Positions 5,088 through 64,000 of a stretch of 64,000 nucleotides of DNA are shown one piece after another. The notes beneath the pieces were generated by a model, which ran no database searches, had not been told where the DNA came from, and worked only from the letters and a program-made list of their open reading frames with translations. The DNA comes from Ostreococcus lucimarinus (Eukaryota). Where the stretch lies: assembly GCA_000092065.1 (NCBI GenBank), contig CP000587.1; one strand, 5' to 3'. The position numbers and the translations under genes were made by a program. Positions within the stretch are counted from its first letter, which is position 1. Each line of letters begins with the position of its first letter.

Positions 5088-6284
5088 ATGGCGGTCGCCA
5101 CCGGTGGACGTTTCGCCGAACGCTCCGCGTCGGTGAAGCCGATCGGACGCGAGCGCCCAGAACGTCGCGCGCGGCGTCGAGTGGTGCGCGTGGCGTCGAC
5201 TCGCGACGCTCGACTCGTGGAGCTTTATTCGGGCATCGGCGCCACTCGACTCGCGCTGGAGCCTCTGGTGACGCTTAAAAGCGCCATCGCGGTGGATAAC
5301 TCCGACGCCGCGAACGCGGTGTACGAGGCCAACTTCGCCGACGCCCCGCGAAGAGTCAACGTAGAGCACCTGGACTTGAATGCGCTTTTCGCATCTGGGA
5401 ACGGGGACGAGGGACGACAGGGACGAAGGAACGACTACGTGTTGACTGTTTCTCCCCCGTGTCAGCCGTACACGCGACGAGGCAAAGGCTTGGCGTCCGA
5501 AGATCCGCGCGCTCGAAGCTTTCACGCGGTGATTGATCAGCTGCGCGCGATCGAGCACGTTCCCAGACGTATATTTGTCGAAAACGTCGTCGGCTTTGAG
5601 TCGAGCGACACGAGACGCGCGCTATTGAACGCGTTAGGAAGTCGGCGATACGACGTGAGGGAGTTTATCGTTAGTCCGATGGCGTTGGGCATTCCGTATT
5701 CGCGTTCTCGTTACTACTTGATCGCGACTTTGCGCGAGGGCGGGTTTCGCGCTCCGACGCCGGCGTGGCTTGCGGGACGAGAATTAAACGACGACGGATC
5801 CGTCGTCACCTCTGACGCGCAGAGCAGTCCGTCATCGTCAGCGACGCTCAGTGAGTACATAGTCGCCGACGCGGATGGGCGAGTGGACTTATTGTTGAGC
5901 CCAGATACGATCAAGAAGTATCGTCGCATGCTCGACGTGGTGCACGCGAAGAGTCGGCGGTGCTCCACATTCACGTCAGGTTACGGCAGTACAGTGTTCG
6001 GGGGCTCAGTCGTACTTCGCGGCGGTAACGATGAGCTTGTGTCGATGTTGGAAGTAGATGTAAACGAGACGTCGGGCGTCGCTCGAATCAGCGAGCGAGA
6101 CATCGAACGTTTCGTCGGCGAATTGCGCTGGTTCGCCGTTGAAGAAATCAAGAGGCTGCACGGCGTGCGGCGAGATTTCACGTTCGACGCGTGTTCGACG
6201 AAGAAGGCGATATTCCTCCTCGGCAACTCGATATCGGTCGACGTCGTTCGCGAAGTGCTGCGCCATTTGATTCAAGACGGTTAG
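5088..6284 (+). CDS. TRDMT1: DNMT2 / TRDMT1 tRNA (cytosine-5)-methyltransferase
   Basis: Motif I is LVELYSGIGATRLAL, motif IV is SPPCQPYTRRGK (PCQ), motif VI is IFVENVVGFE (ENV), and a Dnmt2-type CFT-like motif is CSTFTSGYGS. ATG at 5088. The track ORF start at 4830 overlaps the upstream gene in another frame. Confidence 0.85.
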   Translation: MAVATGGRFAERSASVKPIGRERPERRARRRVVRVASTRDARLVELYSGIGATRLALEPLVTLKSAIAVDNSDAANAVYEANFADAPRRVNVEHLDLNALFASGNGDEGRQGRRNDYVLTVSPPCQPYTRRGKGLASEDPRARSFHAVIDQLRAIEHVPRRIFVENVVGFESSDTRRALLNALGSRRYDVREFIVSPMALGIPYSRSRYYLIATLREGGFRAPTPAWLAGRELNDDGSVVTSDAQSSPSSSATLSEYIVADADGRVDLLLSPDTIKKYRRMLDVVHAKSRRCSTFTSGYGSTVFGGSVVLRGGNDELVSMLEVDVNETSGVARISERDIERFVGELRWFAVEEIKRLHGVRRDFTFDACSTKKAIFLLGNSISVDVVREVLRHLIQDG

Positions 6285-39302: not shown

Positions 39303-42300
39303 CTAATCTAAAATCGAAGACACGGTATCCTGCACTCCAATTCTCTTTGCGAGGATGTCACTGAACGCCTCGTTCCAGATGAGGACAGTCTGCATCGTCG
39401 CCACGGGAAGCAGCGACATGAAGAACAATATAGTAAAGATTATTAAACCGAAGAACTTGTCCATCTCTTTGTACCAGAAGTCTGAAAACCCTCGCGCTGC
39501 GGCCAAGCCGCGTCGCGCGCGGTACACAAATGGTTGCAACGCGCGACGCACACCGTTTCCTCGAGGTTCCGGTTCGCCATCCACTGTTTTCATCGGGAGC
39601 CAGCTTTCACCGAAAGTAATGATACTCTTGTCACTCACGAAGGAGCACGCCTCGATGAATATCGCCACGACGCACCAAGCGCCGAGCCCAGTCATGAACC
39701 ACGTGCGGAACAAGCTGTTGCTGCCGGTTTCGACGTGCAAAGCGAAAAAGTACAACCCATTCCAGACGAGGAAGAGTCCCAGACGTACCAGTCCGCGATA
39801 CACGCTAATTTTCCACAGTTTGTCGGGGAATTGTAACCACGCGTCGCGTGCGAATACCACTGAGTTCATCGCAGATGTGTACAAGAACACGACGAAGCCC
39901 ATTGCAATCGTCGCAGCGGCGATGCGACCCGAGTTCACGCTGAACTGTTCCATTTGCGTCAGCCCTGTGTATAGCGCGCTGCCGTGCAGAGAACCAATCA
40001 CAACAAGCAAGAGGATGACACGTCCGAAACTACTCATGAATAAGACGCCCGCTTTGTTGAATAAACCAATTCTGTTTCGATAGTTGGTGTTCATCGTCGA
40101 GTGCCACTCTTTCCAGGAACCATTCGCGATTTTGGGCTTGTCGAAAGTACCATCGAGCCAGTCTCGCCAATCGTTCCAGCTATTTCGCATCCAGTAAGTG
40201 TTCGTGCTTTGTGGCGAAAACCACCAGGGCGTTATGATGATGCAGATACCAAAGCTCCAAACCGACCAAGAGTACAGCAGTGATTTTGGAAGCACCGTGT
40301 TCGCGTGAAACAACAGTAAAAGAAGCAACACTTCCATACCAAAGTACAGGTGAGACTTGGCGTACAAGCCGTAAAGTACCACCATGTTCGCATTTTGTAG
40401 CACAAAACCCCGCTCGGTAGCGATATACTGCGCTTTACCGAAAAGGAGACCAACCATGTAATTGTAACCTTTCGTCGTCATGGCAAAAATGTTGAACGCC
40501 CACGAACCACGAACAAGTGACGAGGCGGTGTATTCGATACCATCGCGCAATCCTCTATCCATCACCATCTTCAAGAAGAGAGGTAGGACTGTTAGTAATC
40601 CTAGCTGGATCGCATAAATGGAGTTGTAATAACCACCTTCTTCTTTAGACAGCGACAGTGTTGTTTGTGTCTCTGTCATTTTGAAATAACGATAGACACG
40701 ATAGATTTCAAGATCTGCAATCGCGAGCCCGGCGTGCACTAGAATGTACAAATAAACACACCAAGCCGTCTGCATAACGCTAATGAAGAAGCCTGGGCCA
40801 CTAAAGTACATAGACATCATTCTGAAAAAGTCCATCGAGCGGTGTAGTCTGTAAACGTCACGAGACATTGAGATTGTCCCCGCAGAGCCTGAAATCTTTT
40901 GTTCGAAACCATTTACGGATGTAAAACCCATATCTCTTCCTTTACCCACCTCGATGAACTCTTCAAATAACACTCGGCCGCCACGAACGATCGCGTTCAC
41001 GCCACCGAAGAAATCCTCGGCGACGTGGATCATCTTTGAGGCCTTAGACACGCCACCATTTGTCATGGTGAATGCCTTGTCCCACACGTCGGGGTGACCG
41101 TAGTGGAAGCGCACCATGAGTGGCCACGTCATGAAACGTTGAAACGTTTGGAAAATGAACTCTGAAATCGCCGCGAACTGTGCGACGGCGCCCGTAGTCT
41201 CACTAAATATCACCTCAGGAAAGCCGACGAGGACAACGTCCTCAGAGAAAACATCGAGCAAGTTTCGCATCTTCAACGCCTCCGGGAAGTAGCCATCTTG
41301 ATTCATGTCCAGCGTTTGCAGGTAAGCACCTCTGCTGAAAATGACGGCGTGGTTTTGGTTTTCAGGTTTTCCTTCTCCAATTATTGGATTTCCTGGTAAT
41401 TCTACCTTGCACGCGAGAGATAACGTTCTATTTTCTCGATCGCATCCGACGAGACACGAAGCGAACGTGTCGTTTGTGTCAGACTTTGTCTGCACGAAGC
41501 ACACTCGAAGCTCTGGATGATTCAAGATGAGCTCGTTTATATCCTCCGCTTTCTGTCTATCAGCGGAACCTTGTGGAGCATTCAGCATATTTCCGTACAC
41601 TTGGCAAGACACGAGATATTCGAACTTGTCGCAGACCAATGTCTCAATCTCATCTTCGTCGTACCCTTCCGCTCGCGCAAGAAAGCGCAACGCTGCCCCA
41701 TAACTGCAGACACCACGCACGCAGCGACTGAGCGACTGCGTATGGTCGCTCGTCCAGATGCGGAGTTCTTCCCAGTACTTCTCAGTCACTGTGGCGTCGT
41801 CGCACGCCAAGGCCCCAACGCGCTCTTTGAAGTTTTCGTACTCATCTGGATACGTTGCTTGGATGATGGACAGCAGCGTCTTTTGATCTTCAAGAGGCTT
41901 TATCAATTCATCCTTCACGTAAGAAACCTCTTCAGCGTAATAAGGCGTGAACGCAGTCCACGCACGCATGTTACGCAACTTGGTGGGCATTTTCAGCGTC
42001 GCAAAGCTCAGAGAATTGGCAAAAAACATAAGTTGCCGACGAGCTTCGAGATTACGCGGCTCACCACCAGGATTGATGTTGTTCATTGAATTCAACAAAC
42101 AATCGACAATCTTCCGGTTGTTTACCAGCGTCGCGGAGGCGGACACTACTCGCACATGCTCAGTGTCACGCAGCGCATCGATGCGCACCATTTCAAGAAG
42201 TTGCGAATAAAGCTGCGACACACGATACTTTCTCTGATTGTTTGCGTTCGACCAACGACCATCGTTTTCCATGGCAAACGAACAGATCTTCCGAACCGCG

Positions 42301-45300
42301 AGAAGTATTTCGTGTAACGCTTCAGCGAGCGTGCTCGATTGCGCGTCGATATCTGCATCAGTTTGGATATTCGACCACTTGATGAGCTTTCGGCGACCTC
42401 TTCGCCAACGTTTACGAATGTTCGGTCGCTCTTCGCTTTCGTCCAGGAGAGCTCGTTGCTCTGCGCTCATTTCGTCCCAGTTTTCTTGAACGACGAAGCA
42501 TCCGCGCAACAGACCGCTCTTTTCCTTCATCTTTTTGCGTTTCTCTTTGGGAATAATACCGGTACAGCCAAATTTCATCTCGAGATTGATTGCCTCGACC
42601 ATTTGTTTCTGGCGATTTTTTTCCTTCTCGCGGATAGCCCTGAGTTGTCGCCGTTTTGTTCGTTGCTCCTTCCTCAATCGAGCTCTTTCGGCGCCGGCTG
42701 TATCGCCGAGAAGAAGGAGTTGCGCCTCTTCATCATCACTTTCAGTCTCTGAACCTTCAACATCTTGATCTTCATAATCTTCGATTATGGGAGTCGCATC
42801 AGTCGACGCACTCATCGCTTGCAACGTTAAGAGAAGCTTGATGATGGAGTCACGGAGTTGAATATAGCCACCGACGTCGTCGCGGCGACGTTGAGACATT
42901 TGCTCCCCCTCTATCGCGGCTAAGTCGGTTATGACCCGCATCAAAAGCGAAGAATCGCCGGGGGAGACGACTCGAAGCACTTCAGTCATCACCACACAAA
43001 GCAAATCCTTGGTTTGGATCAGCGTCGTGCCGAAAGAAGGGTACTGCGCCATTGTCCCAGTATTGAAGTTTGCCCTCGAGAAGACTGAAGAGGTGAGCAT
43101 CGGGGGCAGTATGATGTACTCCGGGGCGTCAAATATTTGCTCAATATCACGACCCTGGAGGAAAACAAACTTCAAGTCGGTACACTCCTTGTTTGTGATG
43201 TGGTCACGTGCGCGCAACGAATCGACAATCGAATTCCACCCACGCGAAAAGTGTTGCCATTTGACATCCATCGCCTCCGGTAAGAAGTCAGCTGGATTTG
43301 GAGCGGCGGTCTTTACACCAGACTCCATAAGGACCTCATCTTCTACAACGGTTAGCGCAACAGAATCAAGTAAACCTTCGTGAAGATCGCCGCCACCGTA
43401 GCCACCGCCCGAACGTATTCTTTGTTCTTTGGCACCAAATGCATCATCGTCGCTATCGCCGGAAGCGTTACCACTCGTGGTGGCATCGCCTGTCAAAATG
43501 ACTGGCTTTGGCCACGACTTATTCAAGACTTTTTCGCAGAATAGATTTGGAATCTGTTGAAAGTCTCTCAAAAAGTTCGCCCATCGTTGAGCGTGCGACA
43601 CTTTTCCTCTCCACTGAAGGAAAATTGTGAAGACTGATGCGTAGCACGTGTACCACAAAAACGTATCGCAAAAGTACGTCGCCACGGCTGGAAGCATCCG
43701 CGCGATTACCATGACAGTCATCAAAAATTGAGACGCGTGCACGTCGTAGTATGCTTCCGGTAATTGACCTTCAATTTCTTCACCAATATAACCGAGGGCT
43801 GGAAGGCTGAGCTTTTTGCCGCCGATTGCACTGCTCACGACATTCGACGCAGCGTCCACGATGTCAGATACCGTAGACTCCAACCTAGAATGTGGCATCG
43901 ATGAAGGACTAGCAGCAGCGCTACTCCATCCCCGATATTGACCGTTGTATGGATCAACGGAATAGTTCACGTCATAAGCGATCGAAAACTGACTTTCGTC
44001 TCCCCAAGATGCGCCAGTGAAATCGCCACCACCGGCGTGCGAAAATAGCAAACTTCTCCGGCGCTCGGGAATGGGCTCGTAGTAAGCGAGATTGATATCG
44101 CTTTCTTCGTAGTCGTCGTCGTCTTTTGTAAGCTCGGTAAAGTACGTGACTTTTGGCTTAAACTTCAACGCTTGGACGAGCGCATCGCCTTCGAGGTTGA
44201 TGCACGAAGTGTACTCATCGCTCTCTTTGTTCCAGCACAGATCCCCTTTCTTCAGCGCATTCACCGCCTCGCGCAGAGGAGTGATGAGGAGGAAGTGACC
44301 AAACGCAATCTTTGTGGAGAGCACGACGAGCCAGAAAAGAGTGTAAATAATGCGCTCGCGGACAGGCGTCGCCATTTGCGTCGGCGAGCCAACAAATGGC
44401 TGGCGCCGAACCATAGAGGACATCAGGCCACTGTTTGCGAGTGCGTACACCGCCGCCAAACCTTCAAAGTACTTCGTACTGTTATCGGCGCGAAGCGAAC
44501 GCTCCAGCACGTAAAACATTGGCACCGATATAAACATTCCAGCTCTTGTCGAGGTGACCATCCAGTCGCCAAAAGACTCTTGCGAAATGTTACGGAACCG
44601 GATTACCGCGACTTCCTGTCCAAACTTTAGCAACGCATGCGTCACCATCGACGTCGAGAGGTACGACCAATTCCAACCGTGCGCGAACACGTAAGCGGTC
44701 GATAAATGGAATGCGACGGCGTGGAACAAGATGATGGAATGAAAGTTGACGAACATGCTCAACCAACCTGAGGTTTCACGATGCGTTTTGAAAAAAACAT
44801 TGGTGAGAACGGCTGAGGAATCGCCTGAAGCCATCGCGCGCGACATGAATGAACGCAGGTGCTCGTACATTCTGGCATCTCTAGAAAGATTTTTCATGTT
44901 TCGAGGTACGCCAACGTAATCAGTTTCTTCTTCGCCGCGGTCGGGTTCTTCTTCCGGCGGGAGAAGTCGCACCAATCTGTCGTATTGCCAGAAAAATTCG
45001 TTGACATCGTCGTACATGACGCGCTCCGAAATGGGCGCAGAGGCACGATCAGAAATTTCTCGCTTTAAGAAGGTGTAAATCGGAGTGATCACGGTGCGAA
45101 GGAAATCCTTTTCACCGTAAGGCATGACGTCTGCGGATACGGGTTTGCACATGATGCGCTCTTCGCCTTCACCGGGAAGCCTATCGTCAAGCGTAAGTGA
45201 GCAAAGTGCCGCGTGAAAGATGAAACAGAGACATTCACTCATGTGGCGGAGATTGGCACATTCCCCGTATATCAAAAACCAAAGGCACAGGTGGTGAAGC

Positions 45301-48300
45301 TTTGCGTTCAATTCGACCGCGACGGATTGTTCGCGACTTGCACGCGTCCAGAGTTTGTTTGCGTCAGACATGTACACCGAAAGTAGCATTTCTCTAGAAT
45401 CCTGATCATCGTCACGAGCGATGCGTTTTGCGTGCGAAGCGACGGAGTCCACCATGCCAGTGTACGCGCCCCAGTTGTTGTAGTTCTGGAATAAATGCGC
45501 GTGAAGTTCGTGTACAACATCGTTCCAGTATCGATCCAAGTAATCGGTTGAGTAACTCGATACATCTTCTTTTTGTGTGAGCAATTGCTCAAGCCAGACG
45601 GATAAACTGTCAACGCTGTTTGCGAGGTTTGACGGGACGTCGACTTCCTCATTCGTGAATGTAGAGTCCTTCGCGCTCTTCTGGAAACCGAACATATCCG
45701 CGAGGTGTGAAGCAATAGGCTCGATCCTACGTTTGATTTCGGTGACTCTCTCGTTTTTGTTGGCCGTCATGTCACCCACTGATGTCAAATCTTCCTTCAT
45801 ATCCGGGATGGTGCTCGGCATCGGTCTAGCATAGCGAACAGGCGTCGATTTCAGGCCGAGGACCTTCCGGATGAAAACTCTGGACGACAGAAACCAAGTT
45901 TTTACCGAACGCGACGTCATCGCCCGATTGATTGTCGTCACCAAAGTGCGGCGGCGCATTTCGACGCCTAGCACAGATGCATATGCTCTGTTGAACAACA
46001 TCTTTGCGTGAACGTAAGAAATTGGCACGAGGGACAGCAGAGCGAGGCAAATATGCAGAGCCAATCCGATCACCTCATCCACATCTCGGAAGAAAAAGTC
46101 ACTGAAGATGCGCATCGTTCGAGCTATGTGCTTGAACATAGGCAGTGGAATATCGGAGATCAGTGAGGATATATGAACGACACAGTGCACCGTGCAGAAT
46201 GCCGCCAAGGCGAAAACGATTTTGTTCTGGCGCTGTTCAGTATCGAGCGTTTCGCTGAATAAACGTCCGCAGAGCTTCATGTGGAACACAACCAAAAAGA
46301 CTCGGACGCACATATTGTACATCAAGATGACGCTGCGTTTACCGACCTCGCTGGATGTGAGACCCAGTCTTTCCCCGATTGCGATTACGCGCTGCGGCCA
46401 GAAGAACGACGGCGACGTACTCATGAAATAGACTCCGGTGAGCAACAATCCGGCGATACCTGCAGTGACAACGACGACGCCTCGTACAGCCGGAATCCCG
46501 TCGAAATCGCTCACACGGACTGCCGCCGTACTACACACCATAAGGATGAGTGGGACAGGGAGAATGCGGAACGTGATGTACTCCATCTTGAGATGTCTCG
46601 GCATGGCGCGTAGTGACTTCATACGCTTGGCCTGCCACATCCACCAAGTGCCATCTTGATTGACTGCTCCTTGATTGCCAAGTTTAAAGGGATCAAGCCA
46701 GAATAGCCAAGAAGTGAAGTTTATCGCGGGGATACCCTCCTTGAAACTCTGTGGATGAAAGAACCAAGGTGAAAACATCCAAAGAATGACGGCGATCCAT
46801 ACATGCCAAGTTGTCGTCACAAAGACGTACCCTGCGCTGAACGTAGATAGTTCTGTGAGCAGAAGAGTCATCGCTAAAGTCGACATCGATGGAATGATGT
46901 GTGAAACCGCGTACTGCATGTAAAGGTCGGAAAAAGAGGCGTTCATACTCATACTGCGTTTGGTACCGCGGTACGACGCTTCGCCAGAGGCGATCGAAGC
47001 ATCGATAGCAGAGCCTCTCGATTTGGCGATGAACATGTGGTACACAAACGATCCCGTAACGATCCCGTGATAGGTATCTTTGACCATCTTTACTAAACCA
47101 CCGGTGATCCAACCGTGCAACATACCAGGCCAGGCCATCACCAAGCTCGCTTGAAGCATCCATTGCGATGGATACAGTGTTTCAAGGCCAATTTCTTGGT
47201 GGAAACCGACGTTATCGAAGGCATCGCCAGTTGTGTAATACGTTTCAATGCTAAACATTGCGATCACTGTCTTACACAAGACAAAGGCGGCCATGGATGT
47301 AAACAGCATGAATTCTGTGTAGAATAACCCAACCGACGACTGGAAAAAGCTCAAGCAGCGGAAAATGTCCATGCTCTTTGAAAGTCTATGAAAGTCACGC
47401 GAGATAAGCTGCATACCGTTCCCAGTAGCGATTTTTTTATTGAATTGGTTGTTACCATCGAATGAAACTTCTCGTCCCTTGCCACAGGTGGTAAAGTTCA
47501 CGTACTCGATTTTGCCACCCCGTTGCACGACATTCATACCTCCGTACACGTCCTCTGACAAGTGCAGTCTTCGAGAAGCCTTAGAGACTCCACCACTTGA
47601 GCGGATGAATGCACCATCCCATATGTCAGGGTGGCCGTAGTGCATGCGGACACGAAGAGGGTTCGTCATGAAACGCTGCAACAAAGTCCCAAAGACCGCC
47701 TCAGAAGTGGCCGCAAAACTCGACACTGACCCCTGACGCCCAGAAATCAGTTGTTCGGTAAAGCCGATGAGCACTATGTCTTCGTCGGATCCATACAACC
47801 TCAGAACGTTACGAAGTTTTAACCCTTCTGCGAGATGTGCATCTTGGTTCATATCAATCGTTTGCACATACATGCCACGCGACCAGACCAATCCCATGTT
47901 TTGGTTTTCGGGCTTGCCTTCGCCAACAATTGGATGCCCAGGAAGTTGAACACGATGCGTTCGCTTGAACTTTCCGTCTGCGCCGCGACTGAGCTTTGCA
48001 ATTGCGAAGTTATCATTGTCGCCACTCGGTTGTTCGACATAATTTACCGTGACATGCGGGAATTGTTCCACGAGCGCCTCCACTTCACCGTTCATCGTAT
48101 ATCCCGGTGAGTTGTAGACTTGGCAACACAGGACGTGCTCGAACTTTGCACGAACCAATGGTTCAATCTCATCTTCAGGGACGCCTTCCAGACGTGCCAA
48201 TAATCGTAGGGCATCGATGTAAGAGGCAAAGCCTCTCACCGTACGATATAAAGTTTGACCTTCGCCGCTCGCCCAGTTCATGGTTTCTTCACTCAGACGT

Positions 48301-51300
48301 TTTTCCTCATCGGTGAATGTGGACAAAGCAGTGATCTTGTCCAACATCGCGCGATCAAAAAAGTGCTCGTAGTTTGAGTCTTTCACCTTCACACCAGTGC
48401 GCTCGATCATGTTTTCCCACGAAGACGGTGCCATGCTGACCATGAAGCGAAATCCCGTGACGGATTCGCCATCGATTGTTGATGTCAACGTGTCCAACGA
48501 AGTGCGAATTTCTTCGGTGTAAACCGGAGTTAGCGTCGTCAGCATCGGCATCTGACGAACAGTCATTGGTTTCTTCATTGCAGGATCGCCGAGGCTTGAC
48601 ACGAAAAATCGAAAGATGTCTTTCGCTTCGTCCAAAGAAGGTTCGGCCGCGGGGTTCGCCGTAGAGAGCATCAGATCCATTTGTTTGATGACGTACGATC
48701 CAGCCTTGGAGGACGCCGCACTTCGAATTTTGGCTGATGACGAATCGAGAGCATTAAAATCCATGATTTGCTGAAGCTTCTCGCACGTTTTAACCAAGAG
48801 TACGTTCGTTTCTTTGTGCGTTGCGCGCTCATTCTCGCGGTCCTTTGCGATCTCAGTGCTGATGAGTTTGAGCAAATTTTCCATCTGCGAGCGAATTCGA
48901 CTGGTATCAAACGCACTTTCGTCATCTTCACGAACTCGCAACAGCTTCAATAGTCCCGCCGATTGCTCGCGCAGCGACCCGAGCCATTTTATCGCATGGG
49001 AATGCTCACTCAAGCTCAGCGACATGAGGTCAACGAGAGACTTGAGCAATTCTACAAACTGCACACGGTCTCTGGCGTCGACAACTCCGAGGACACAGGT
49101 AGCGATGAAAGCGAGCAAGTCAATCGATTGCGCAATCACGGATGACGAAAACGCAAACCGCATCTTTTCATTGCGCTGAACGCCAATTCCACTAAACAAA
49201 GAGCCACTGAGCATGATAGGGAAAACGACGTACCGAGAGCCGAAGAAGCTCTCGCTCGTGGGTCCATCCAGGATACGGAACAAAAGAAGATCGGTCTCTT
49301 CGTTACTCAAGAGGTCTCTTGAGCGCGTCGACTTCACGATCTCGTTCCATGCTTTCGCGAAAGAGAACCAGGCATCCGAAACGCTTTCTGAACACAATGC
49401 TGTTGAAGAGTCCGAAGGTGGTTCCGGCTTGGGAGAAGACGTCAAAACTTTTTCCGCAAATAAATCCACGTTTTGCGGCATATCAAGAACTGTGCGTGCC
49501 CACCCGCTGGCAATACCTGTGTTCTTGTAGCGCTTGTATGCGCTAGCGACGCCAAGCGTCGTGATGAAGTAGAAGAACGTGTTACCAAAGTACAGCAATA
49601 CACTCGGCATCCATCGCTCGAATAACATGAGCGCCTTGAATCCATATCGTCTCGCCAAACGAGTCATTTCGATTAGCTGTGGAGAGAGGAGCTCGTTATA
49701 GTCGTACGCATCACAGTCAGCCCCTGCGAAGTTATAATTCCAGCAGTACAGATCGAGTTCCAGAATCGCTTTCGTTGGTGCGATGAGGGGGTTGACCATC
49801 AAAATATAATCGAGGGTCAACTTCAACGTAAAGGTGACGACCCAGAAGATGATATACGACCGTCGGTCTTTGCTTGATATGGGATTGTTCACCTTCTCTG
49901 TGAAATATCTGTCCGTTTTGTCACCGGAAGTGAGTTGGTAGCCAGAGATATTGGCCAAAACCAGCACAGCGTAGGGGAAACCGACTGCAGCAAACGTCTT
50001 CACATTGATGAAGTCAGTGGCACAAGCCATCCCGAGTAGCAGAACTACTATAGCGAAAGCGGCGCGTCCGACTGATTCTACTCGACTATGGAACAACGCA
50101 ATTCGGTCGAAGAAAATGACTCTCGACTCGATGATCAGGTCAAATACGGCTGCCGTCAGCGCCGTCGTCGAGTACATTGCCGGTTCTGCAAATTTCACAA
50201 ATGCGTGCACAATCATAACGTGCATCATCAACGACAGGAGCGCGAAAATGCGATGGAAGTTGACATACATCGTCATCCAACCCAAATGCTCTCTGTAAGT
50301 TTTTCTGAAAACAACGCTCAAACTCTGATCTTTCTCCTTAGCGGCTCCCGCAGTGCGCACAAAATGCCTGAATTTAGCATACGAGCTTGTGCCCATCTCA
50401 GCGTCTATGTTCAGCATACGCTTCAACTTTGAGACATCAATAAATGTTTCATTCATATCATCGTAACCCATGCGAAGATGCAAAGGAGCAGCACTTTTCA
50501 TGTGCAATGCGAGGAAATTGTATAGCGGTCTCACAATTGAGGTGAGAAAATCATCCGCTTCAAAAGCCAAACCGGAGTCGGGTACAGCCGAACACATGGT
50601 GCCTCGGTTCACGACAGCCGCCGCCATGATGTGAAATACAAACATCATAAACTCTGGCATAAACCTCAAATTGGCAGACTCTTGGTAAATGAGCTCGAAC
50701 AGTACAAGCTGGCATAGCTTCGCATCAGTGCTTCCCTTCAACATCGAAGACGCCAGCGTCTCAGTTCCACGCGGAGAAAAATCTATGCCAGTGTAACTCA
50801 TGTATCGCTTATAACTCGCAAACGTTTTCTGATGAAGAGCCTGCGCGGCCCAGTCTGATTTGTTCGAGCTCGGCGCGTCTTGGAGTTGAGACGTGTTCCA
50901 AAGAAGCATCGCGCACTTATCGATGCAGCTTTCTCGTATGCTTGCGACGCCTTCGCTACCGTTTTGGAATCCAAATAAATCACCGAGACTTTGCGCGATG
51001 GGCGCAAGCCTAGTTTTCCACTGCTCAATATCACGCTCGATGGAGCTTGCTCCCGATGGCTCCGGGCCAAGACGAGTGAGAGAATCTTCTTCGAATTCGA
51101 CAGGTGGAGATTCTTTGCTGAGTTCACCGACGAGTTGCCGAGACGCTTTGGAAGGCGTACCCAACGCGCGTACAGCTCGTTTCTGGATATCCGCCGTCGC
51201 GCGATCGTCCGCAATAAACAGTCGAACGATCAAGAAATTCGATCGAGAAAGAGAGACTAATGCATCTCGCACGTATCGACGCGTTATACGCCAACGAATG

Positions 51301-53765
51301 GCGAGAGCAACGCCCAAGTACAAGATGATCGCTAGGTATACCACCGTCAAGAGTTCAACCTCAAGTTTTAAGGCATCGACGGATTCGCGGTCGGGGCAAC
51401 TCGTGTCCCCAGGTTGCTCAAATCGCTCTTTTTGATCTTCTATGTACGTCTCCAACTCTGTAAATATTGTCGGCGGCTCCGGACACGCTCTGTTATTTTT
51501 GCGATGAATCTGTCGCATGTGGTGACAGGTCAAAAAAGTGCTTTGCAATGCTGTCGAAACCGGGTTGATCAACCCCTTTGGATGCGTCAAGATTGCACTA
51601 AAGTTCTCGAAGTGCGCATAAATCGGTGTCGGCTCGTTCGGATTGAGCTTGATTCCGTGGAATGCCTCCGCCTCGGCGCGCATGAACAAGTGCATCGTCC
51701 TGTTGTGATAACTTTTCATAAATTTCGAGCAGTCTGGATACATGTCGATATTGTAGGCTGGCTGATTATCTTGTCCGTGGAATATAGTACAGCTCCCCCC
51801 GTCCTTCCAAAGCAGCTTCAGCATGTAATAAGCAGCTCTTGGTCGCAGTAGGTCCACTTTGTTTATGCTACACTTCTTCTTCACCGCCATCACTCCGAAC
51901 CACTCCTCGGACACATACAAGTCAGGCTGCGTCGGGGACATGTATCCACACGGAGAATGTAAATATTCTTTCAGCGATGGGCATACTCGCGTGATCGTTG
52001 GAATGCGCTCGTCGTTGGTTGGCACAGGAGTCACTGCTTTGCCTTTCCAGTATTCGTCGACCCAAGCCATGATGGCCCCCCCGGACGTAAATCTAACTCC
52101 GCAACCCGATTTGCACGCCGTGGAGTGTCGCTCTATATCTTCTACCATCGTAGAGAGCCAATCTGCCTGTGAAACCTCATCCTCGGTCCCCATCGTGTCG
52201 TACCCGTTGAGACCATCCAGTTCTGGATTGAGGCTAAAGGCATCAACCCCATACTCCGTAATCAAAAACGGACGTTTGCTCACCAGATGGTATCGCTGAA
52301 ACAGTCCCATTGGAGAAAAGTAACGCCGCGTGTACAAGTTAACGCCCCAAAAGTCGATTTGATCCATGTACCGATCGGCTAACTTTATCCAACTCAAAGC
52401 TCCCCACAGCTGGCGTCCCACCAGATGCTGCTTAGTCTTTGGCAAATTTACGTTCGCTATGGCTGTGCCGCAGAGCATGTTTTCTGATCGGACCATCCCG
52501 CAGAGCATGTTGATCGACTTCATCAGCTTTTCGATCGAATCGTCAAACTGACATCCGCCTACCCCAAAGTTTTCGGCCAAATCGCTATCACACACGTACA
52601 AATTCCACGGGCCGTTCAACTCGTTGCCGACAATCCAACCGACCACGGCCGGATGCTTCGCCGATCGTACAAGTTTGCGTAGTTCAGCTTGCGTATTCTC
52701 CATCGTCTCTGCGGTGTTAAAGAAGCTTTTCGTACCGTCTTCAAAGTCATAGCCGACGAGAATTGATATGTTGTACTGGTGCGCCAAATCAAAGAATTGC
52801 CTATGCCGCTTGGAAAACTTCAACGTGTAGATGCGCATCGTGTTCACGCCCGCAGCGGCCATGAGAGGTATGTCGCGCTCAAATATACCCGCGTAGTCAT
52901 TCGTAAAAAAGTCACCATACGGCTCAAACCAATCTGGGTCCCATCCGACCGGCACGGGGGAGTAACACACCGCGCGCATCAACCATGGTTTGCCGTCGAG
53001 GTACAGGGTACGCCCGAGCCGACGCATTCGACCGGTGTCCCATGTCGTGTTCAACATCGGCGGGTTTAAAAATCTCTTCACCAGCTCTCGTCCCGACCGC
53101 TTGCCGTGCTCGTACTCATCGTCGACAAACGCGGGATCGTAAATCGCCTCGTCCGTCAACGCCAAGCCCGGCTGTACCGTCCCCGCTCTGTTCATTTCGC
53201 TTTGCTTCGAATAAGACGACGAGCGCGATTCACCTTCCGCTACGTCTCTGTTCGCGCGCCCACCGCGTGTGGTCTGCCCTAATGCCGGAAGCGGCCGCGC
53301 CTCGCGCGTCCCCGCCGCCGTCTTCTCCGCCGCCGTCCTCGGTCTCGCCTCGTTAAAGTCCCACACCGATCCCGACAGCCGTTCATTCAGGGCGTCTAAG
53401 TCGACCGTCCCGCTCGTCTCGCTCGCGCTTCGCGCCCCATCGATCGTCCTCGCGCGCTCAAACGTCCGCGCTCCTTCGTCCGCCGCGTCAACACCCTCTC
53501 GGAGGCGGAGCGACTCGCCGCCCGTCGTTCCACCTTCCGTCGCCCCCATCATCGCGTCCGACGCCACCGACCGCGCGCCCGCGTCCCCCCGTCGCGCGAC
53601 GACGGCCAAGACCACTCCCACGACGCCCACGAGCGCCGCGAACGCGCGTCGATGATCGACCCACGCGCCCCGTCCTCGTCCTCGTCGCGATTCTCCCGCC
53701 TCTCTCCCTCGCGTCGCGCCATCGCGCCGCGCGCCGAGCATCGGCGTTCTCTCCGCCGCGCTCAT
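39303..53765 (-). CDS. Giant 4,820-aa single-exon protein: signal-anchor, clan GH-A glycoside hydrolase / transglycosylase domain, then two tandem complete FKS/callose-synthase-type (GT48) 1,3-beta-glucan synthase units
   Basis: The GH domain (plus 53000-51600) has VGNELNGPW (acid/base NE) and FLITEYGVD (nucleophile TEYG). Unit 1 has FKS domain-1 [15 protein letters not shown] and catalytic [39 protein letters not shown]...[32 protein letters not shown]. Unit 2 has [15 protein letters not shown] and [38 protein letters not shown]...[32 protein letters not shown]. Each unit has multi-TM blocks. Uninterrupted 14,463-nt ORF with ATG at 53765-53763. Confidence 0.95.
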   Translation of the reverse strand: [4820 protein letters not shown]

Positions 53766-58692: not shown

Positions 58693-58809
58693 GTGCGCCG
58701 GACGCAACACGAGTGATGTAATAAACTTATTCACCGCGCGTCGAAGGCCCCTCGCAGTGGTGTAACACCATCCCTGCTGATCATCACCATCATTGAACGA
58801 CGCGCCGTC

Positions 58810-60510
58810 ATGGGCCGAAGGCGCGAACGTGCGTCAGCGCCCGCGGTGGTCGCAACCGCGCTCGCCGCGCTCGCATTCACATCGCAACCCGCGCGCGCGG
58901 CGCGCGCGGCGCGCGCGGCGCCGAACGACCCGCGCAAAATCATCCCGGGGCTGCGCCACGAGCGCGAGTTTCAACGCTACGTTGAAAAGTATGCGAAGAA
59001 TTACTGCGATGCCGACGCGAGCGAGGCGGCGTGCGCCGCGTCGTTGCGCAGACAGAAAGTCTACTACGCGAATATGGTGCGATACGAGGCGCACAACGCG
59101 GATTCGGCGCACAAGTTTCAGTTGAAAGAGACGAAGTTTAGCGATCTCACGGAGGAAGAATTCGCCGCGAGGGTGTTGACGTATAAACCGAGGCGACAGT
59201 TTGGTGAAACGATGCTGGGGAACTCGGAAGATGAGGTTAGCTCGACGTCCGCGCGCGTGGGCTACGAGGCGGCGGCGTTGAAGTCGCCCGCGGAGATCGC
59301 TGTGGCACGGAAGCATTCGCAGCGCGCGCGCGACCGCACTCAAAGGCGCGAGCGAAACCGGCTGCGTGGACATGTCGAAGACCACGGAGAAGTCGACGAT
59401 AGTGGACCGTTGGGTGATGCGGACCCATCGATTCCGGCCGCCTTTTCGTGGCGCACGCCGCCAGATGGATACGGAAACGTCGTCGGTGTGGTGCACGATC
59501 AAGAGGACTTGTGCGCGTCGTGCTGGGCGTTTGTCACCGCGGATTCCATCGCGAGCCGAATCGCAATCATAAACAAGGGCGACGACGCCCCGGCGTTAAG
59601 CGTGAAGCAGCTCATGGCATGCGATGCTGTTGATCACGGGTGTTCGACCGGGAACATGTACACCGCGTACGAATGGATCGGGCAATACGGCGGTATCAGC
59701 TCCAAGGCGGATTACAACGCGAAAGTACCAGGTGACCGAGACGACGCTCCGGATGCCAAGTGCGACGCGTCCGTCAAAAAAGTTTACGATACGCCGGCTA
59801 TGTGTGATTTAGCGCAAGTTGCCGGCGAAGAACCGCTTTATCGTGCGATCTTCGAGCGAGGTCCCGTCGCCGTTGGCATCAACGCAAACAAACTGCAGGC
59901 ATACGGCAGCGGCGTCATCATGTTGGATGACTGTAAGCCACTTGGTCGTGGTATTGAGTCCATCAATCACGCCGCACTTGTCGTTGGGTGGGGCACGACG
60001 GACGACGGGGTCAAATACTGGGAAATTAAAAACTCTTACGGCCCAGAGTGGGGCGACGAAGGATTCTTCAGGCTCGAGCGCGGTCGCATCGGCGAACACA
60101 AGTTCGGCACTTGCGGTCTTCTCTTTGAATCCGTCTACCCGGTCGTCACGAAGGCTGGCGATGCGACGTCGACTGACGCTCCGTGTGTGAAGGGATCAGT
60201 CCAAAAGCAAACGTACTATAGAAACGAGACGCTCAATCCGGGCTTGGGCGACGATGACGTTGAGGACGAGGCGCGCATCGGCGTCGCGCAGCGCCGCGCG
60301 CACCGAGCCCACGGTCACGCACACCGCGCGCGAAAAGCTCGCCTAGGCGACGCCGCTTCGTCGCACCTGACGACGCACACCGAAAACGTCGTCGCCGCGG
60401 CCGCCGCTCTGGCCTCGATCGCCGTCCTCGTCGCCGCGGTCGCTCATCGCCGCCGAGCGCGCCGGGACGCCGTCCCCGAATCCGCCGCGCTCCTCGCCGC
60501 CGAGCCTTGA
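58810..60510 (+). CDS. Second cathepsin L-like C1A protease paralog with signal peptide, I29 propeptide and C-terminal TM anchor
   Basis: The propeptide is RQKVYYANMVRYEAHNAD. The catalytic Cys is EDLCASCWAF, the His is NHAALVVGWG, and the Asn/Trp is NSYGPEWGDEGFFRLERG. The C-terminal TM segment is AAAAALASIAVLVAAVA. Confidence 0.9.
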   Translation: MGRRRERASAPAVVATALAALAFTSQPARAARAARAAPNDPRKIIPGLRHEREFQRYVEKYAKNYCDADASEAACAASLRRQKVYYANMVRYEAHNADSAHKFQLKETKFSDLTEEEFAARVLTYKPRRQFGETMLGNSEDEVSSTSARVGYEAAALKSPAEIAVARKHSQRARDRTQRRERNRLRGHVEDHGEVDDSGPLGDADPSIPAAFSWRTPPDGYGNVVGVVHDQEDLCASCWAFVTADSIASRIAIINKGDDAPALSVKQLMACDAVDHGCSTGNMYTAYEWIGQYGGISSKADYNAKVPGDRDDAPDAKCDASVKKVYDTPAMCDLAQVAGEEPLYRAIFERGPVAVGINANKLQAYGSGVIMLDDCKPLGRGIESINHAALVVGWGTTDDGVKYWEIKNSYGPEWGDEGFFRLERGRIGEHKFGTCGLLFESVYPVVTKAGDATSTDAPCVKGSVQKQTYYRNETLNPGLGDDDVEDEARIGVAQRRAHRAHGHAHRARKARLGDAASSHLTTHTENVVAAAAALASIAVLVAAVAHRRRARRDAVPESAALLAAEP

Positions 60511-60689
60511 GATCGAGCCACGTGGTTTACGATCTGAAACAAATATCCATATTTTAGTTACATGTAGCAACACAACCGAACGCGAAACGATTGAGAAGAG
60601 CTTCCGCGGGCGAGTCCCGAGCCCGCCGCGCCGCCGCGAATGAATCCAGCACCGCCATCGCCCCGCATTACGCCGCGCGGCGCCCTCCG

Positions 60690-61295
60690 ATGGACTTCCT
60701 GCGCGACGTCGCGAACACCGTGGAGCGCGCCGTCACCGGCGCGTCCCCGCGCGCGCTCGATCTCCCGCAATGCGACGTCGCGTTCGTCTCAGAGACCATC
60801 GCCGAGTACGGGCGAATCTTGGCGCGCTCGAAAGACGTCGTAGTTCGCGACGCCGACCGCGCGACCGACGCCGAGGTGCGGCGCGCGCGATTCAACATGG
60901 TGTGGGCGCTGTGCCACAGCGGCGTCGAGGATCAGCTGAGACGAGGGACGCAAATGCTCGAGCGCGGCGCGAGCAACGGGGCGAACGCGGAGACGACGCT
61001 CGAGGCGAGGTGGCGAGTCGAATTCGGCGACGCGATGGAGGTCAGAGATGGGCATTACTTGCGAAGCGTGGCGTATTACGGGATGAGGGATTACGAGCGC
61101 GCGCGCGAAGCGGCGTTTGCGGCGCTGAAGTGTGACCCAGAATGTCGACAGGCGGCGGCGTTGCGCGAGGCCAGCGAAGAAGCGTTGGCGAGGGACGGAT
61201 TGGTCGGCGCGGGGGCGATCGCGGCGGCGGGACTGGCGATCTTAGGAGCGACGGCGGCGATCGCGGCCAACAGCGCGGGGGGGAGTCGACGATGA
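60690..61295 (+). CDS. FIS1: Fis1 (mitochondrial/peroxisomal fission 1) tail-anchored TPR protein
   Basis: FNMVWALCHSGVEDQLRRGTQMLE...RSVAYYGMRDYERAREAAFAALKCDPECRQAAALREASEEALARDGLVGAGAIAAAGLAILG closely matches the Fis1 C-terminal half (..YYLAVGNYRLKEYEKALKYVRGLLQTEPQNNQAKELERLIDKAMKKDGLVGMAIVGG..). Confidence 0.85.
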   Translation: MDFLRDVANTVERAVTGASPRALDLPQCDVAFVSETIAEYGRILARSKDVVVRDADRATDAEVRRARFNMVWALCHSGVEDQLRRGTQMLERGASNGANAETTLEARWRVEFGDAMEVRDGHYLRSVAYYGMRDYERAREAAFAALKCDPECRQAAALREASEEALARDGLVGAGAIAAAGLAILGATAAIAANSAGGSRR

Positions 61296-61359
61296 TGACG
61301 ATGATGGCGGTACTGTACGCTAGTAGTTCTAGAATGAAATTTCAACACGCGTTCACTTG

Positions 61360-64000
61360 CTATTTAATCGACGCCTTTTCTAACGTTTTTTTATATGAAC
61401 GAATGGAGTCTTTCCACACGGACACCTTTTTGTTTTCACACACCCATATCTCTTTCGCCACCTTATCGATCAATCTAAAGTCGTGACTAACGAGTACTAG
61501 ACCGCCTTTGTACTTGTTGATGGCGTCTGCGAGAGAGTCGATGCAATCGTGATCCAAGTGATTCGTCGGCTCGTCGAGAAGAAGCATGTTTGGGTTACCG
61601 AGACAAATCATGGCGAATACCAAACGTGATTTCTGTCCATCCGAAAGCGCGGCGATGGGATTGGTTTGTAAACGCCCGCTGATGCCGAACTTGCCCAAAT
61701 ACGACCGCCACTCGTCCGTCGGTTTTCGCATGTCATAATACGTCCCAGAGAAGAAATCCAAAGGCGACGCGCGCGGGTCCAGCACATCGACGCTGTGCTG
61801 ATGGTACCGCCCGATGCTGAGGTGGTGGTGTCGCGCGACTTCGCCTTCGCTCGCTTCGATATCACCCGTCATGAGCTTGAGAATTGTCGACTTACCCGCA
61901 CCGTTTGGGCCGACGAGCGCGATTCGAGAATCGCAATCCACTCCGAACTCCAGGTTTTCTAAAAGCATACCGAGCGAAGGATCCGCCGTGTGATATCGGA
62001 AGGAAACGTTCTTAAACGGAAGTACTGGCGGTGCGAGCTTGGCACAATCTGGGAACGTGAATTCGAAAGTTCTCTCCGCCGTCGGCGACGGCGTCAACCC
62101 GGCGGCTTCCATCTTGTCCAGAATCTTTTGTTTCGAGTTCGCCTGTTTCATCTTATCCGCGTAGGTACCGCAAGACGCGATGAATTCTTTCAGATGTTTG
62201 ATATCCGCTTGCTCTTTTTCGTACTGCTTCTGCTGAATAACCTCTTCCGCCGCGAGCGTGGCGCGAAACGTATCGAAGTCGCCCGTGTAGTACTTCAAAG
62301 TCTTGTTTGTGACTCTGATGACGTGCGAGCACACACCGTTGAGGAAGTCTTGCGAGTGCGAAATCACGACCAGGCACTTCTTATATTTTGACAGATGATC
62401 TTCGAGCCACACGCACGCGCTCAAATCTAAGTGATTCGTCGGCTCGTCGAGTAAAAGTAACGCCGGCGACGCCAAAAGAGCGCGCGCGAGAGAGACGCGC
62501 ATTCGCCAACCACCAGACAGCGCCTTTGTTTCGCGATTCATCATGACTTTATCGAATCCCAAATTGTGGAGAAGCTCCGCCGCCGTAGTTTCAAATTTAA
62601 CCGGATCGAGTTCCTCTAAACGCTCGTATATTCCCTGAAGGCGCTCGTCGCCGGGCCCGTTCGTCGTGAGAATTTCGCTCTCGATGGCTTGCAGGCGCGA
62701 AACTTCTTCGCGTATATGGTCCACAACAGCCTCGAGCGCGCTTCGCTCACTCGGTTCAGCTTCTTCGCGCAGATGATATATGTCAACGTGTGCGGGTACT
62801 TCTAGTTCGCGCTTCGCTATGGCTTCCAGAAGCATGGACTTGCCGCACCCATTCGGGCCTAATAAACCGTAGCGCCGTCCGACGTTGAGCTCCATCACGC
62901 AATCCTTGATGAGCTCGTTACCGTTCACGGACATAGAAACTTGCTCAAATCGTAAGTCTAGTGCGGTTTTACGTGAGACGAGCACACCTGAGACGCTTCG
63001 ATCGACGTCACCCTCGACGATTTTGCCGTCCGTCTTCGTCGCGTCTCCGGACTCATCTACGCTGGTGCCGTTCTTTTCCCCACGCCGACGTCGCGCGCCA
63101 CCTTTTCGACTTGCACCGACACCGCGAGCTTCATCCTCGCTCGAGGTCACCTTGCCTTGATATACACGCCAGGTATCTGAGCACACGTCTCCCACAAAGG
63201 ATGCGTTGTGGCTGATTGTCAACACGCCTCCCTTGAAACGCCTAAGCGCCGCAGTCAGGGCTGCTAACGTTTCGTTATCTAAGTAGTTTGTCGGCTCATC
63301 CAATGCAATAATATGCGGCTTCGTCCACATCGCGGCCGCGAGCACGAGTCTGGACTTCTGACCGCCAGACATGCGCTTAATTTTCCCGTCGGCGAGCTCT
63401 TGCGATATGCCAAAATCGCGCAAATGAGAATAAACCTCGCCACTTGTCAGAGGACGTATGTCCATCCCACTTTGTATGGCTTTCATCATTTCGTCGTAAT
63501 TTTTGCACATCTTCACGACGTAAGACACTTTGAGGAATCGTTTTGGTTCCCAGTGCGTGACGCCCACTCTGTCGCCGACTTTTTTCACCTCATAACACAG
63601 CTCGCCTCCCTTGACGGCGCGCCCGAGGATCTCGCACACGCTTCCACGCGACTGCTGCTCTACTTTTTCATCATCCGTGAGTGACATTGTGGACATTTTT
63701 GCTAATTCCTTATCTCGGCCTTGGTAAAAACGAGTTTGGATGTACTCCTTGGGCGACATGTCAAGGTGCGCTTGCAAGTGGTGCATCGAGTGCTGCGCAA
63801 TGTAAGCGATGCGCAGGTTATGGTGCTTCCAGATAGAGCCACCCGTCGGCTCGAGCTCACCGACGATATTTTTCATGAGTGTCGTCTTACCCGCGCCGTT
63901 CGCACCGACGACGGCGACGCGACTGCTGAGATACATTCGAGTGTACACGCCGCTCAAGACTTGATTGTTTGGGTACGCGAAACTCAGGTCCTCAAGACGC
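61360..64000 (-). CDS. Partial (5' end beyond the window) ORF carrying three ABC NBDs in one frame: eEF3-type ABC2 with chromo-like insertion, then a complete ABCF2/Arb1-like NBD-linker-NBD
   Basis: NBD-A has VAVVGANGAGKTT, KEYIQTRFYQGRDKE (eEF3 SEYIQWRFQTGEDRE), the insertion ELCYEVKKVGDRVGVTHWEPKRF, MSGGQKSRLVLAAAMWTKPHIIALDEPTNYLD and GGVLTISHNASF. NBD-B has GRRYGLLGPNGCGKSMLLEAIAKRELEVPAHVDIYHLREE (ABCF2 [40 protein letters not shown]), LSGGWRMRVSLARAL and LLLLDEPTNHLD. NBD-C has RIALVGPNGAGKSTILKLMTGD...GRYHQH, LSDGQKSRLVFA and LLLLDEPTNHLD. The frame stays open upstream of the track start (TTG). Confidence 0.85.
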   Translation of the reverse strand, partial: RLEDLSFAYPNNQVLSGVYTRMYLSSRVAVVGANGAGKTTLMKNIVGELEPTGGSIWKHHNLRIAYIAQHSMHHLQAHLDMSPKEYIQTRFYQGRDKELAKMSTMSLTDDEKVEQQSRGSVCEILGRAVKGGELCYEVKKVGDRVGVTHWEPKRFLKVSYVVKMCKNYDEMMKAIQSGMDIRPLTSGEVYSHLRDFGISQELADGKIKRMSGGQKSRLVLAAAMWTKPHIIALDEPTNYLDNETLAALTAALRRFKGGVLTISHNASFVGDVCSDTWRVYQGKVTSSEDEARGVGASRKGGARRRRGEKNGTSVDESGDATKTDGKIVEGDVDRSVSGVLVSRKTALDLRFEQVSMSVNGNELIKDCVMELNVGRRYGLLGPNGCGKSMLLEAIAKRELEVPAHVDIYHLREEAEPSERSALEAVVDHIREEVSRLQAIESEILTTNGPGDERLQGIYERLEELDPVKFETTAAELLHNLGFDKVMMNRETKALSGGWRMRVSLARALLASPALLLLDEPTNHLDLSACVWLEDHLSKYKKCLVVISHSQDFLNGVCSHVIRVTNKTLKYYTGDFDTFRATLAAEEVIQQKQYEKEQADIKHLKEFIASCGTYADKMKQANSKQKILDKMEAAGLTPSPTAERTFEFTFPDCAKLAPPVLPFKNVSFRYHTADPSLGMLLENLEFGVDCDSRIALVGPNGAGKSTILKLMTGDIEASEGEVARHHHLSIGRYHQHSVDVLDPRASPLDFFSGTYYDMRKPTDEWRSYLGKFGISGRLQTNPIAALSDGQKSRLVFAMICLGNPNMLLLDEPTNHLDHDCIDSLADAINKYKGGLVLVSHDFRLIDKVAKEIWVCENKKVSVWKDSIRSYKKTLEKASIK

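Follow-up and report, generated by a model that had tools for sequence, protein, structure and literature searches.

To our knowledge, eEF3-type translation factors and the ABCF2 (Arb1) proteins are normally separate. In yeast eEF3 the HEAT region provides most 40S-head contacts, the four-helix bundle (4HB) and ABC1 make none, and ABC2 with its chromodomain touches uS13, uL5, uL18, 5S rRNA and the L1 stalk, which frees the E-site tRNA when it opens (PMC7957392). Yeast Arb1 occupies the E site of the 60S subunit (PDB 6R84). Here we describe a gene at the end of a 64,000-nucleotide stretch of Ostreococcus lucimarinus DNA (assembly GCA_000092065.1, contig CP000587.1; the window hereafter) that appears to encode an eEF3-like and an ABCF2-like module in one chain. 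We put the probability that this is one gene for one protein with four nucleotide-binding domains (NBDs) at roughly 0.85.

On the minus strand, the frame running from 63999 to 61363 holds 879 sense codons, closes with a stop codon at 61360-61362 and is still open at the window edge. This is the 3′ 2,640 nt of the gene (61360..63999), the remaining 413 codons at the 5′ end lying outside the window. They could be read from contig L001, which matches window 58753-64000 at 99.3% nucleotide identity, continues for 9.5 kb beyond the edge and is the source of a 1292-aa entry in a public protein collection (P0001) that equals the window frame save for one residue; the 90%-identity cluster of P0001 includes Ostreococcus lucimarinus CCE9901 XP_001418891.1. 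Upstream of the edge, L001 has 413 further codons only, then ATG codons with an in-frame stop before the first, and the full gene comes to about 1286-1293 codons in a single exon. A second contig of about 4.4 kb (L002), considered as an mRNA, was dropped; it is without poly(A) and looks genomic.

The 413 upstream residues consist of a helical N-terminal domain (NTD) of about 95 aa, an eEF3-like ABC1 and a poorly conserved spacer. For HEAT repeats and a 4HB there is neither a match nor room in this part of L001, and the PDB matches of the full protein to eEF3 start at eEF3's ABC1, not at HEAT. An earlier interpretation of the window from its letters (the sequence-only reading) had counted three NBDs and placed the HEAT-4HB-ABC1 part of eEF3 past position 64000. 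In the near-identical contig ABC1 is present there, and HEAT and 4HB are absent; because ABC1 lies beyond the window edge, the count of three was an edge effect and the protein has four NBDs. The same reading had allowed that a nearby start without any eEF3 N-terminus would leave simply a three-NBD ABCF. The start is near, and HEAT and 4HB are missing, but the result is a tandem ABCF with four NBDs.

In the full protein we found four ABC_tran-type NBDs, no other domain type and no transmembrane domain, so that the tandem-NBD arrangement of an ABCF occurs twice. A PDB sequence search aligned window aa 2-297 with yeast eEF3A 671-985 and New1 674-968 (E about 1e-72 to 1e-85), and window aa 354-871 with residues 3-518 of Arb1 6r84_A (E 1e-177, 593 bits; ABCF1 scored 405 bits). 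Pfam gave three ABC_tran stretches in the window and ABC_tran_Xtn (PF12848) at aa 562-636 (E 4.7e-20). Both searches bear out what had been read from the letters, namely an eEF3-type ABC2 with a chromodomain-like insertion followed in one frame by a complete ABCF2/Arb1-type NBD pair.

The first domain inside the window, NBD2, is of the eEF3/New1 ABC2 type and spans 63172..63999 (window aa 1-276; like all features of the gene, on the minus strand), with Walker A GANGAGKT at 63883-63906, signature MSGGQKSR at 63349-63372, Walker B IIALDEPT at 63289-63312 and H-loop ISHNASF at 63196-63216. It contains an insertion at 63448..63723 (window aa ~93-184) that holds LCYEVKK (63580-63600) and THWEP; its stretch 'gelcYEVKkvgdrvgvthWePkrfL' aligns on the New1/eEF3 chromodomain. 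In an AlphaFold2 (AF2) model, which covers residues 99-1292 of the full protein, the insertion has three strands and a helix. On the Ostreococcus insertion Pfam's Chromo model has no hit at E<=10, whereas it recognises the homologous insertion in a distant relative from the second four-NBD family described below (group D; E 2e-8). The insertion is thus chromo-like by alignment and predicted topology, not by the Pfam model.

NBD2 is followed by a conserved basic segment of 30 aa, WRVYQGKVTSSEDEARGVGASRKGGARRRR (63082..63171, window aa 277-306), at the place where the eEF3 C-terminal tail begins (the eEF3A alignment runs to residue 985). Next come a variable acidic spacer of ~25 aa (63007..63081, window aa 307-331) and the conserved end of an ABCF2-type NTD, VDRSVSGVLVSRKTALDLRFEQVS (62935..63006, window aa 332-355, 24 aa), which is homologous to Arb1 'DRVVTGVLSSLETSRDIK' and human ABCF2 'ARAVTGVLASHPNSTDVH'. 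What had been described as a linker of about 65 aa with no Met and no stop indeed has neither, but its extent is better given by these three parts, a junction of 80 residues. The codon for Met356 (ATG, 62932..62934), the RefSeq start of XP_001418891.1 ('MSVNGNELIKD...'), lies within the first conserved strand of NBD3.

NBD3, an ABCF2-type ABC1, occupies 62284..62934 (window aa 356-572), with Walker A GPNGCGKS at 62836-62859, signature LSGGWRMRV at 62494-62520, Walker B at 62422-62460 and H-loop at 62344-62364. The inter-NBD linker of the ABCF2 module (62032..62283, window aa 573-656) carries the ABC_tran_Xtn match and is modelled with long helices at residues 890-948. In ABCFs this linker is the helical region of the P-site-tRNA interaction motif. 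NBD4, an ABCF2-type ABC2, ends the protein (61363..62031, window aa 657-879; Walker A GPNGAGKS at 61888-61911, signature LSDGQKSR at 61624-61647, Walker B at 61564-61587, H-loop at 61471-61491). In 18/18 Mamiellales representatives every one of the four NBDs keeps its Walker A, its signature, its Walker B including the catalytic Glu, and the H-loop His, and by these motifs all four look catalytically intact. The AF2 model (mean pLDDT 83.4, pTM 0.52) shows only NBD folds and linkers, with low confidence in two places only, the spacer between NBD1 and NBD2 and that of the junction (pLDDT <50 at model residues 606-645).

The ABC1-ABC2 pair of the N-terminal half (module 1) is closest to eEF3A and New1 (phmmer E 1e-108 to 6e-114), at 34-35% identity over ~620 aligned positions, and Foldseek aligned this half of the model with ribosome-bound New1/eEF3 over 615-629 columns. 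Like eEF3, New1 and eEF3L (PDB 2IW3, 7B7D; New1 6S47), module 1 has an ABC1-ABC2 pair without an arm or a PF12848-type linker, a chromo-like insertion at the same site of ABC2, and a conserved basic stretch after ABC2. Unlike eEF3, it has the ~95-aa ABCF3/Gcn20-like domain instead of HEAT and 4HB, its insertion goes unseen by the Pfam Chromo model, and its tail does not end the protein but runs on into a whole second ABCF.

The NTD profile matched the rat ABCF3 N-terminus (Gcn20 family) with an hhalign probability of 88% (E 2.9e-6) over 54 columns of a single template sequence, ABCF3 residues 13-70 aligning with ~60 conserved residues; against PDB and Pfam the same profile gave chance-level matches only. 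In Gcn20/ABCF3 this type of NTD precedes ABCF3-type NBDs, whereas in the Ostreococcus protein it precedes eEF3-type NBDs. The partner of the Gcn20/ABCF3 N-terminal domain is the HEAT region of Gcn1, which is eEF3-like. Murina et al. 2019 (PMC6723617) define a shared 'ABCF[347]_NTD'. When the N half alone served as query, two forms of relatives emerged. Stand-alone HEAT-less proteins of ~630-760 aa share the NTD and occur in numerous algae as well as the ichthyosporean Creolimax; canonical eEF3-like proteins of ~1200 aa with HEAT Pfam families match without the NTD (~84% of the N half covered). We use this search for the range of architectures only, and absences from its listing are untrustworthy: P0001-P0053, the nearest full-length orthologs, were unlisted despite long identical stretches, probably an effect of candidate selection.

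The C-terminal half (module 2) shares 63% identity with the stand-alone ABCF2 of O. lucimarinus (XP_001417756.1), 52% with Arb1 and about 40% with ABCF1 and ABCF3. In a neighbour-joining tree it falls in a Mamiellales-wide clade (100% bootstrap) inside green-algal ABCF2, and we classify it on this basis as an extra, Mamiellales-specific ABCF2 paralog. With Arb1 (6R84) and human ABCF2 it shares the 'R-x-V-T/S-G-V-L' end of the NTD, the PF12848 linker and the LSDGQ second signature; its VDR(S/T)V(S/T)GVL...DL/V(R/K) aligns with the motifs of both just before ABC1. Foldseek with the C half of the model gave TM-scores of 0.82 to Arb1 6r84_A and 0.85 to ABCF1. ABCF2/Arb1 proteins stand alone at ~600 aa with a free lysine-rich N-terminus, whereas the N-terminus of module 2 is covalently joined to module 1.

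An exhaustive HMMER scan of 1.84 billion representatives at 50% identity returned, among the best 150 matches, only two kinds of full-length match (P0009, P0091). The four-NBD architecture is rare. The second kind, group D, comprises proteins of 1260-1346 aa from dinoflagellates and other protists that reach 98% query coverage at 36-38% identity; sources include Symbiodinium gene models (e.g. EP00439_P033199) and complete open reading frames (ORFs) of MMETSP (Transcript_12694) and TRINITY transcriptomes. Like the Ostreococcus protein, they have the NTD motif VD-x-E-V-x-EY and an eEF3-like ABC1-ABC2 with an insertion, which Pfam recognises as chromo in group D, followed by a full ABCF. Unlike in Ostreococcus, that ABCF is not an ABCF2; its identity to ABCF1, 3, 4 and 6 is 40-49% throughout and it branches as a separate clade, and we gave up naming it as a known subfamily, equidistant as it is from these four. 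The N halves of Mamiellales and of group D are each monophyletic but not sisters (neighbour-joining, 75% bootstrap). For this reason two independent fusions are the simpler reading, and the fusions are probably independent, which we say with modest confidence from the trees.

The junction between NBD2 and NBD3 decides between one gene and two. From Met224, in NBD2, to Met356 there are 131 codons with no Met and no in-frame stop; the two alternative frames over the 85-codon junction contain 4 and 7 stops. Among the 210 full-length Mamiellales sequences the junction takes 18 lengths, 55-81 aa from one conserved anchor to the other, and occurs in 73 variants, each of them in frame, and some 55 cluster representatives of 1258-1376 aa, from many independent assemblies, cover 99-100% of the query at 66-87% identity. 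Aligning 18 Mamiellales representatives showed that the basic segment is strongly conserved, the acidic spacer variable and the VDR(S/T)V(S/T)GVL motif conserved. Against an 86%-identical relative, the basic segment has 97% amino-acid identity and differences of 0.03/0.03/0.56 at the three codon positions (aa 691-722), and the ABCF2-NTD end has 0.26/0.22/0.61 (aa 753-775); the spacer of ~25-30 codons is fast-evolving, with no codon-position signal. Because differences concentrate at third codon positions, both flanks of the spacer are, by their substitution pattern, under purifying selection, that is, translated. Peptides encoded by the fused frame at the junction include NGTSVDESGDATK, IVEGDVDR and SVSGVLVSR.

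Transcript data come from the same relative. Its cluster contains P0233, a 1298-aa protein labelled 'complete' from an MMETSP culture transcriptome, whose contig L003 is colinear with genomic contigs L004 and L005 in one high-scoring segment pair of 4558 nt; nothing is therefore spliced out of the relative's gene. In a more distant Mamiellales lineage (L006, a TARA metagenome contig, 74% identical to P0022) the orthologous gene has two interruptions, at about 2872-2926 and 5600-5743. The former changes the frame between NBD1 and NBD2; the latter is an intron whose 3′ end, ...TTTTACCTATATCCAG, lies directly ahead of the NBD4 Walker A and has a CTGAC branch-like site, a pyrimidine tract and CAG. 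The NBD2-NBD3 junction is uninterrupted in this lineage. In O. tauri the ortholog is modelled as a single 1290-aa protein of the same four-NBD architecture at 84% identity (XP_003080266.2/CEF98663.1/UniProt A0A090N3T2, 'ABC transporter, conserved site'). This fused model is an automatically named prediction, on which our literature searches found no paper. Of candidate GT...AG introns over the spacer, the best (GTGACC ~63150 to ...TCTCAG ~62988) was rejected; it shifts the frame and removes a segment that is 97% conserved in protein. A scan of the junction for bacterial-type promoters and terminators found none, which is uninformative for a eukaryote.

The joined frame could in principle be an artefact or a sign of decay, through a recently lost stop, an assembly chimera or an unrecognised intron between tandem genes. 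All that speaks for this is the prior expectation of two proteins, and it has to contend with an architecture that recurs in independent metagenome, genome and transcriptome assemblies of several Mamiellales lineages at 60-87% identity, with junction flanks under selection, with a transcript colinear with the genome over the junction, and with a conserved order of P450, the gene, Fis1 and peptidase C1. We regard it as effectively refuted. The sequence-only reading had offered a lost stop or a hidden intron beside a genuine translation-factor fusion and had suggested comparison with orthologous loci; that comparison shows the fusion kept in frame in Mamiellales relatives, and the conserved frame, the coding substitution pattern, the colinear transcript contig and the fused O. 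tauri model together favour the genuine fusion.

A subtler possibility is that the locus makes two separate proteins, through an internal promoter, initiation at Met356 or cleavage in the disordered spacer, and several observations here weigh against a single chain. RefSeq has two O. lucimarinus gene models, XP_001418892.1 and XP_001418891.1, a split that Murina et al. 2019 (PMC6723617) follow. The spacer is variable, fast-evolving and predicted disordered, with low pLDDT, and internal initiation or proteolytic cleavage there is possible. Both module types stand alone in other algae and in the same genome. L003 also carries the antisense neighbour Fis1 and so merges adjacent transcripts of a compact genome, for which reason it alone is no proof of a single mRNA, and the transcript support comes from the 86%-identical relative rather than from O. 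lucimarinus itself. Yet a start at Met356 would discard the 24 conserved and selected residues of the ABCF2-NTD end and truncate the first strand of NBD3; this Met is a hydrophobic strand position conserved in ABCF2s generally, not a start, and no other Met lies in the 131 codons upstream. The 210 sequences show 0 stops or frameshifts across their 18 length variants, the revised O. tauri RefSeq model is fused, and four-NBD proteins of group D come from complete transcriptome ORFs. Two proteins from this locus seem improbable to us.

Taking the locus as one gene for one protein, we can sketch how the product may work. It would be a polypeptide of ~1290 aa from an intron-less nuclear gene, with two full ABCF ATPase modules one after the other: module 1 with the ABCF3/Gcn20-type NTD, eEF3-like ABC1, ABC2 with chromo-like insertion and a short conserved basic tail; a predicted disordered acidic spacer of ~25-55 aa; and module 2, an ABCF2/Arb1 paralog from the conserved ABCF2-NTD end on, with its inter-NBD linker kept. 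The ABCF2 module would anchor the protein in the ribosomal E site, as Arb1 is placed on 60S, and the eEF3-like module would dock by ABC2 and its chromo-like insertion near the central protuberance and the L1 stalk, as eEF3/New1 do. The tether, the 55-81-residue junction, may stand in for the affinity that HEAT normally gives, and the Gcn20-like NTD perhaps recruits, in trans, a HEAT protein. Through ATP binding and hydrolysis, the two NBD pairs would then link occupancy of the E site with the dynamics of the L1 stalk and E-site tRNA. This docking, drawn by analogy, is offered tentatively, at somewhat less than even odds, and one point counts against it: the eEF3-like module has no HEAT and may fail altogether to bind at the eEF3 site.

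The wider 'Rosetta stone' idea, that a HEAT-less eEF3-type module and an E-site ABCF jointly form an ATP machine with four sites on a single ribosome, is possible but doubtful. The chain may be single and its modules still not act jointly on one ribosome: they could be joined for co-expression only, or bridge ribosomes or subunits (collided ribosomes, pre-60S), or the eEF3-like half could have a role unlike that of eEF3. Gcn1-type partners, which act on collided ribosomes, are suggested by the Gcn20-like NTD, and HEAT-less stand-alone relatives of ~650 aa are widespread. In the same direction, the region that gives eEF3 most of its 40S contacts (PMC7957392) is absent from the Ostreococcus protein. 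The arguments on the other side are indirect: the short linker (55-81 aa between anchors) is conserved in kind among Mamiellales, and in a second lineage this N-module is found fused to a different ABCF, which is easier explained by cooperation in cis. Separate action of the modules is in our judgement an unlikely account, though a serious one.

The genes around the locus are arranged alike in relatives. In L001 a cytochrome P450 gene, divergent, directly adjoins the four-NBD gene upstream, and the order P450 (divergent), four-NBD ABCF, Fis1 (convergent) and papain-like peptidase C1 is common to the window species and the 86%-identical relative (L004, L005). Coordinates for this order are L001 6686-8311 (minus strand) and L001 12258-12965 (minus strand), the latter equal to window about 60586-61293 (plus strand, convergent with the gene). 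Fis1 also lies 3′ of the gene in the more distant lineage (L006).

A different ABCF2 fusion turned up in another eukaryote, on contigs of up to 3 Mb: P0064/P0065 (1135-1141 aa) and P0505 (1125 aa) have a long N-terminal extension with DFRP_C/Tma46 (PF16543, aa 264-329, E 1e-9), followed by a complete ABCF2 with 61-63% identity to the C half in the window. The P0002 cluster includes a 197-aa fragment, MGA1170665.1, deposited as 'MAG: ATP-binding cassette domain-containing protein, partial [Ilumatobacteraceae ...]', probably a eukaryotic contaminant in a bacterial metagenome-assembled genome. Elsewhere in the window, a 4820-aa ORF on the minus strand (39303-53765) has a GC content of about 49-51% against 60-65% in its flanks. 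Its Pfam matches are Glucan_synthase (aa 3903-4559, E 5.5e-270) and FKS1_dom1 (aa 2822-2933), with none in the first ~2800 aa; it is a giant callose/1,3-beta-glucan-synthase-like gene with a base composition sharply unlike its surroundings.

The present analysis corrects a split O. lucimarinus gene model. The split had passed into the main ABCF classification as one eEF3L plus one ABCF2: in Murina et al. 2019 (PMC6723617), XP_001418892.1 is classed as eEF3L and XP_001418891.1 as ABCF2, following the RefSeq models, and the main text does not mention four-domain ABCFs. It also defines a tandem four-NBD ABCF architecture, of which full-text literature searches (four-NBD ABCFs, eEF3 with Ostreococcus, and the accession numbers) found no description.

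As ribosome factors, ABCF2/Arb1 and the eEF3-like proteins of protists are still little understood. That eEF3-like NBDs are widespread without HEAT and bearing a Gcn20-like NTD bears on the proposed interaction between HEAT and ABCF3-type NTDs. The same N-module is joined to ABCF2 in Mamiellales and to another ABCF in dinoflagellates, a testable hint of joint action around the E site and the L1 stalk. If the modules do act together, factors of the eEF3 and ABCF1-7 families would cooperate physically, in a general and so far unrecognised way, where they are separate proteins, and Ostreococcus tauri would be a genetically tractable system for assigning the mechanism of ABCF2/Arb1.

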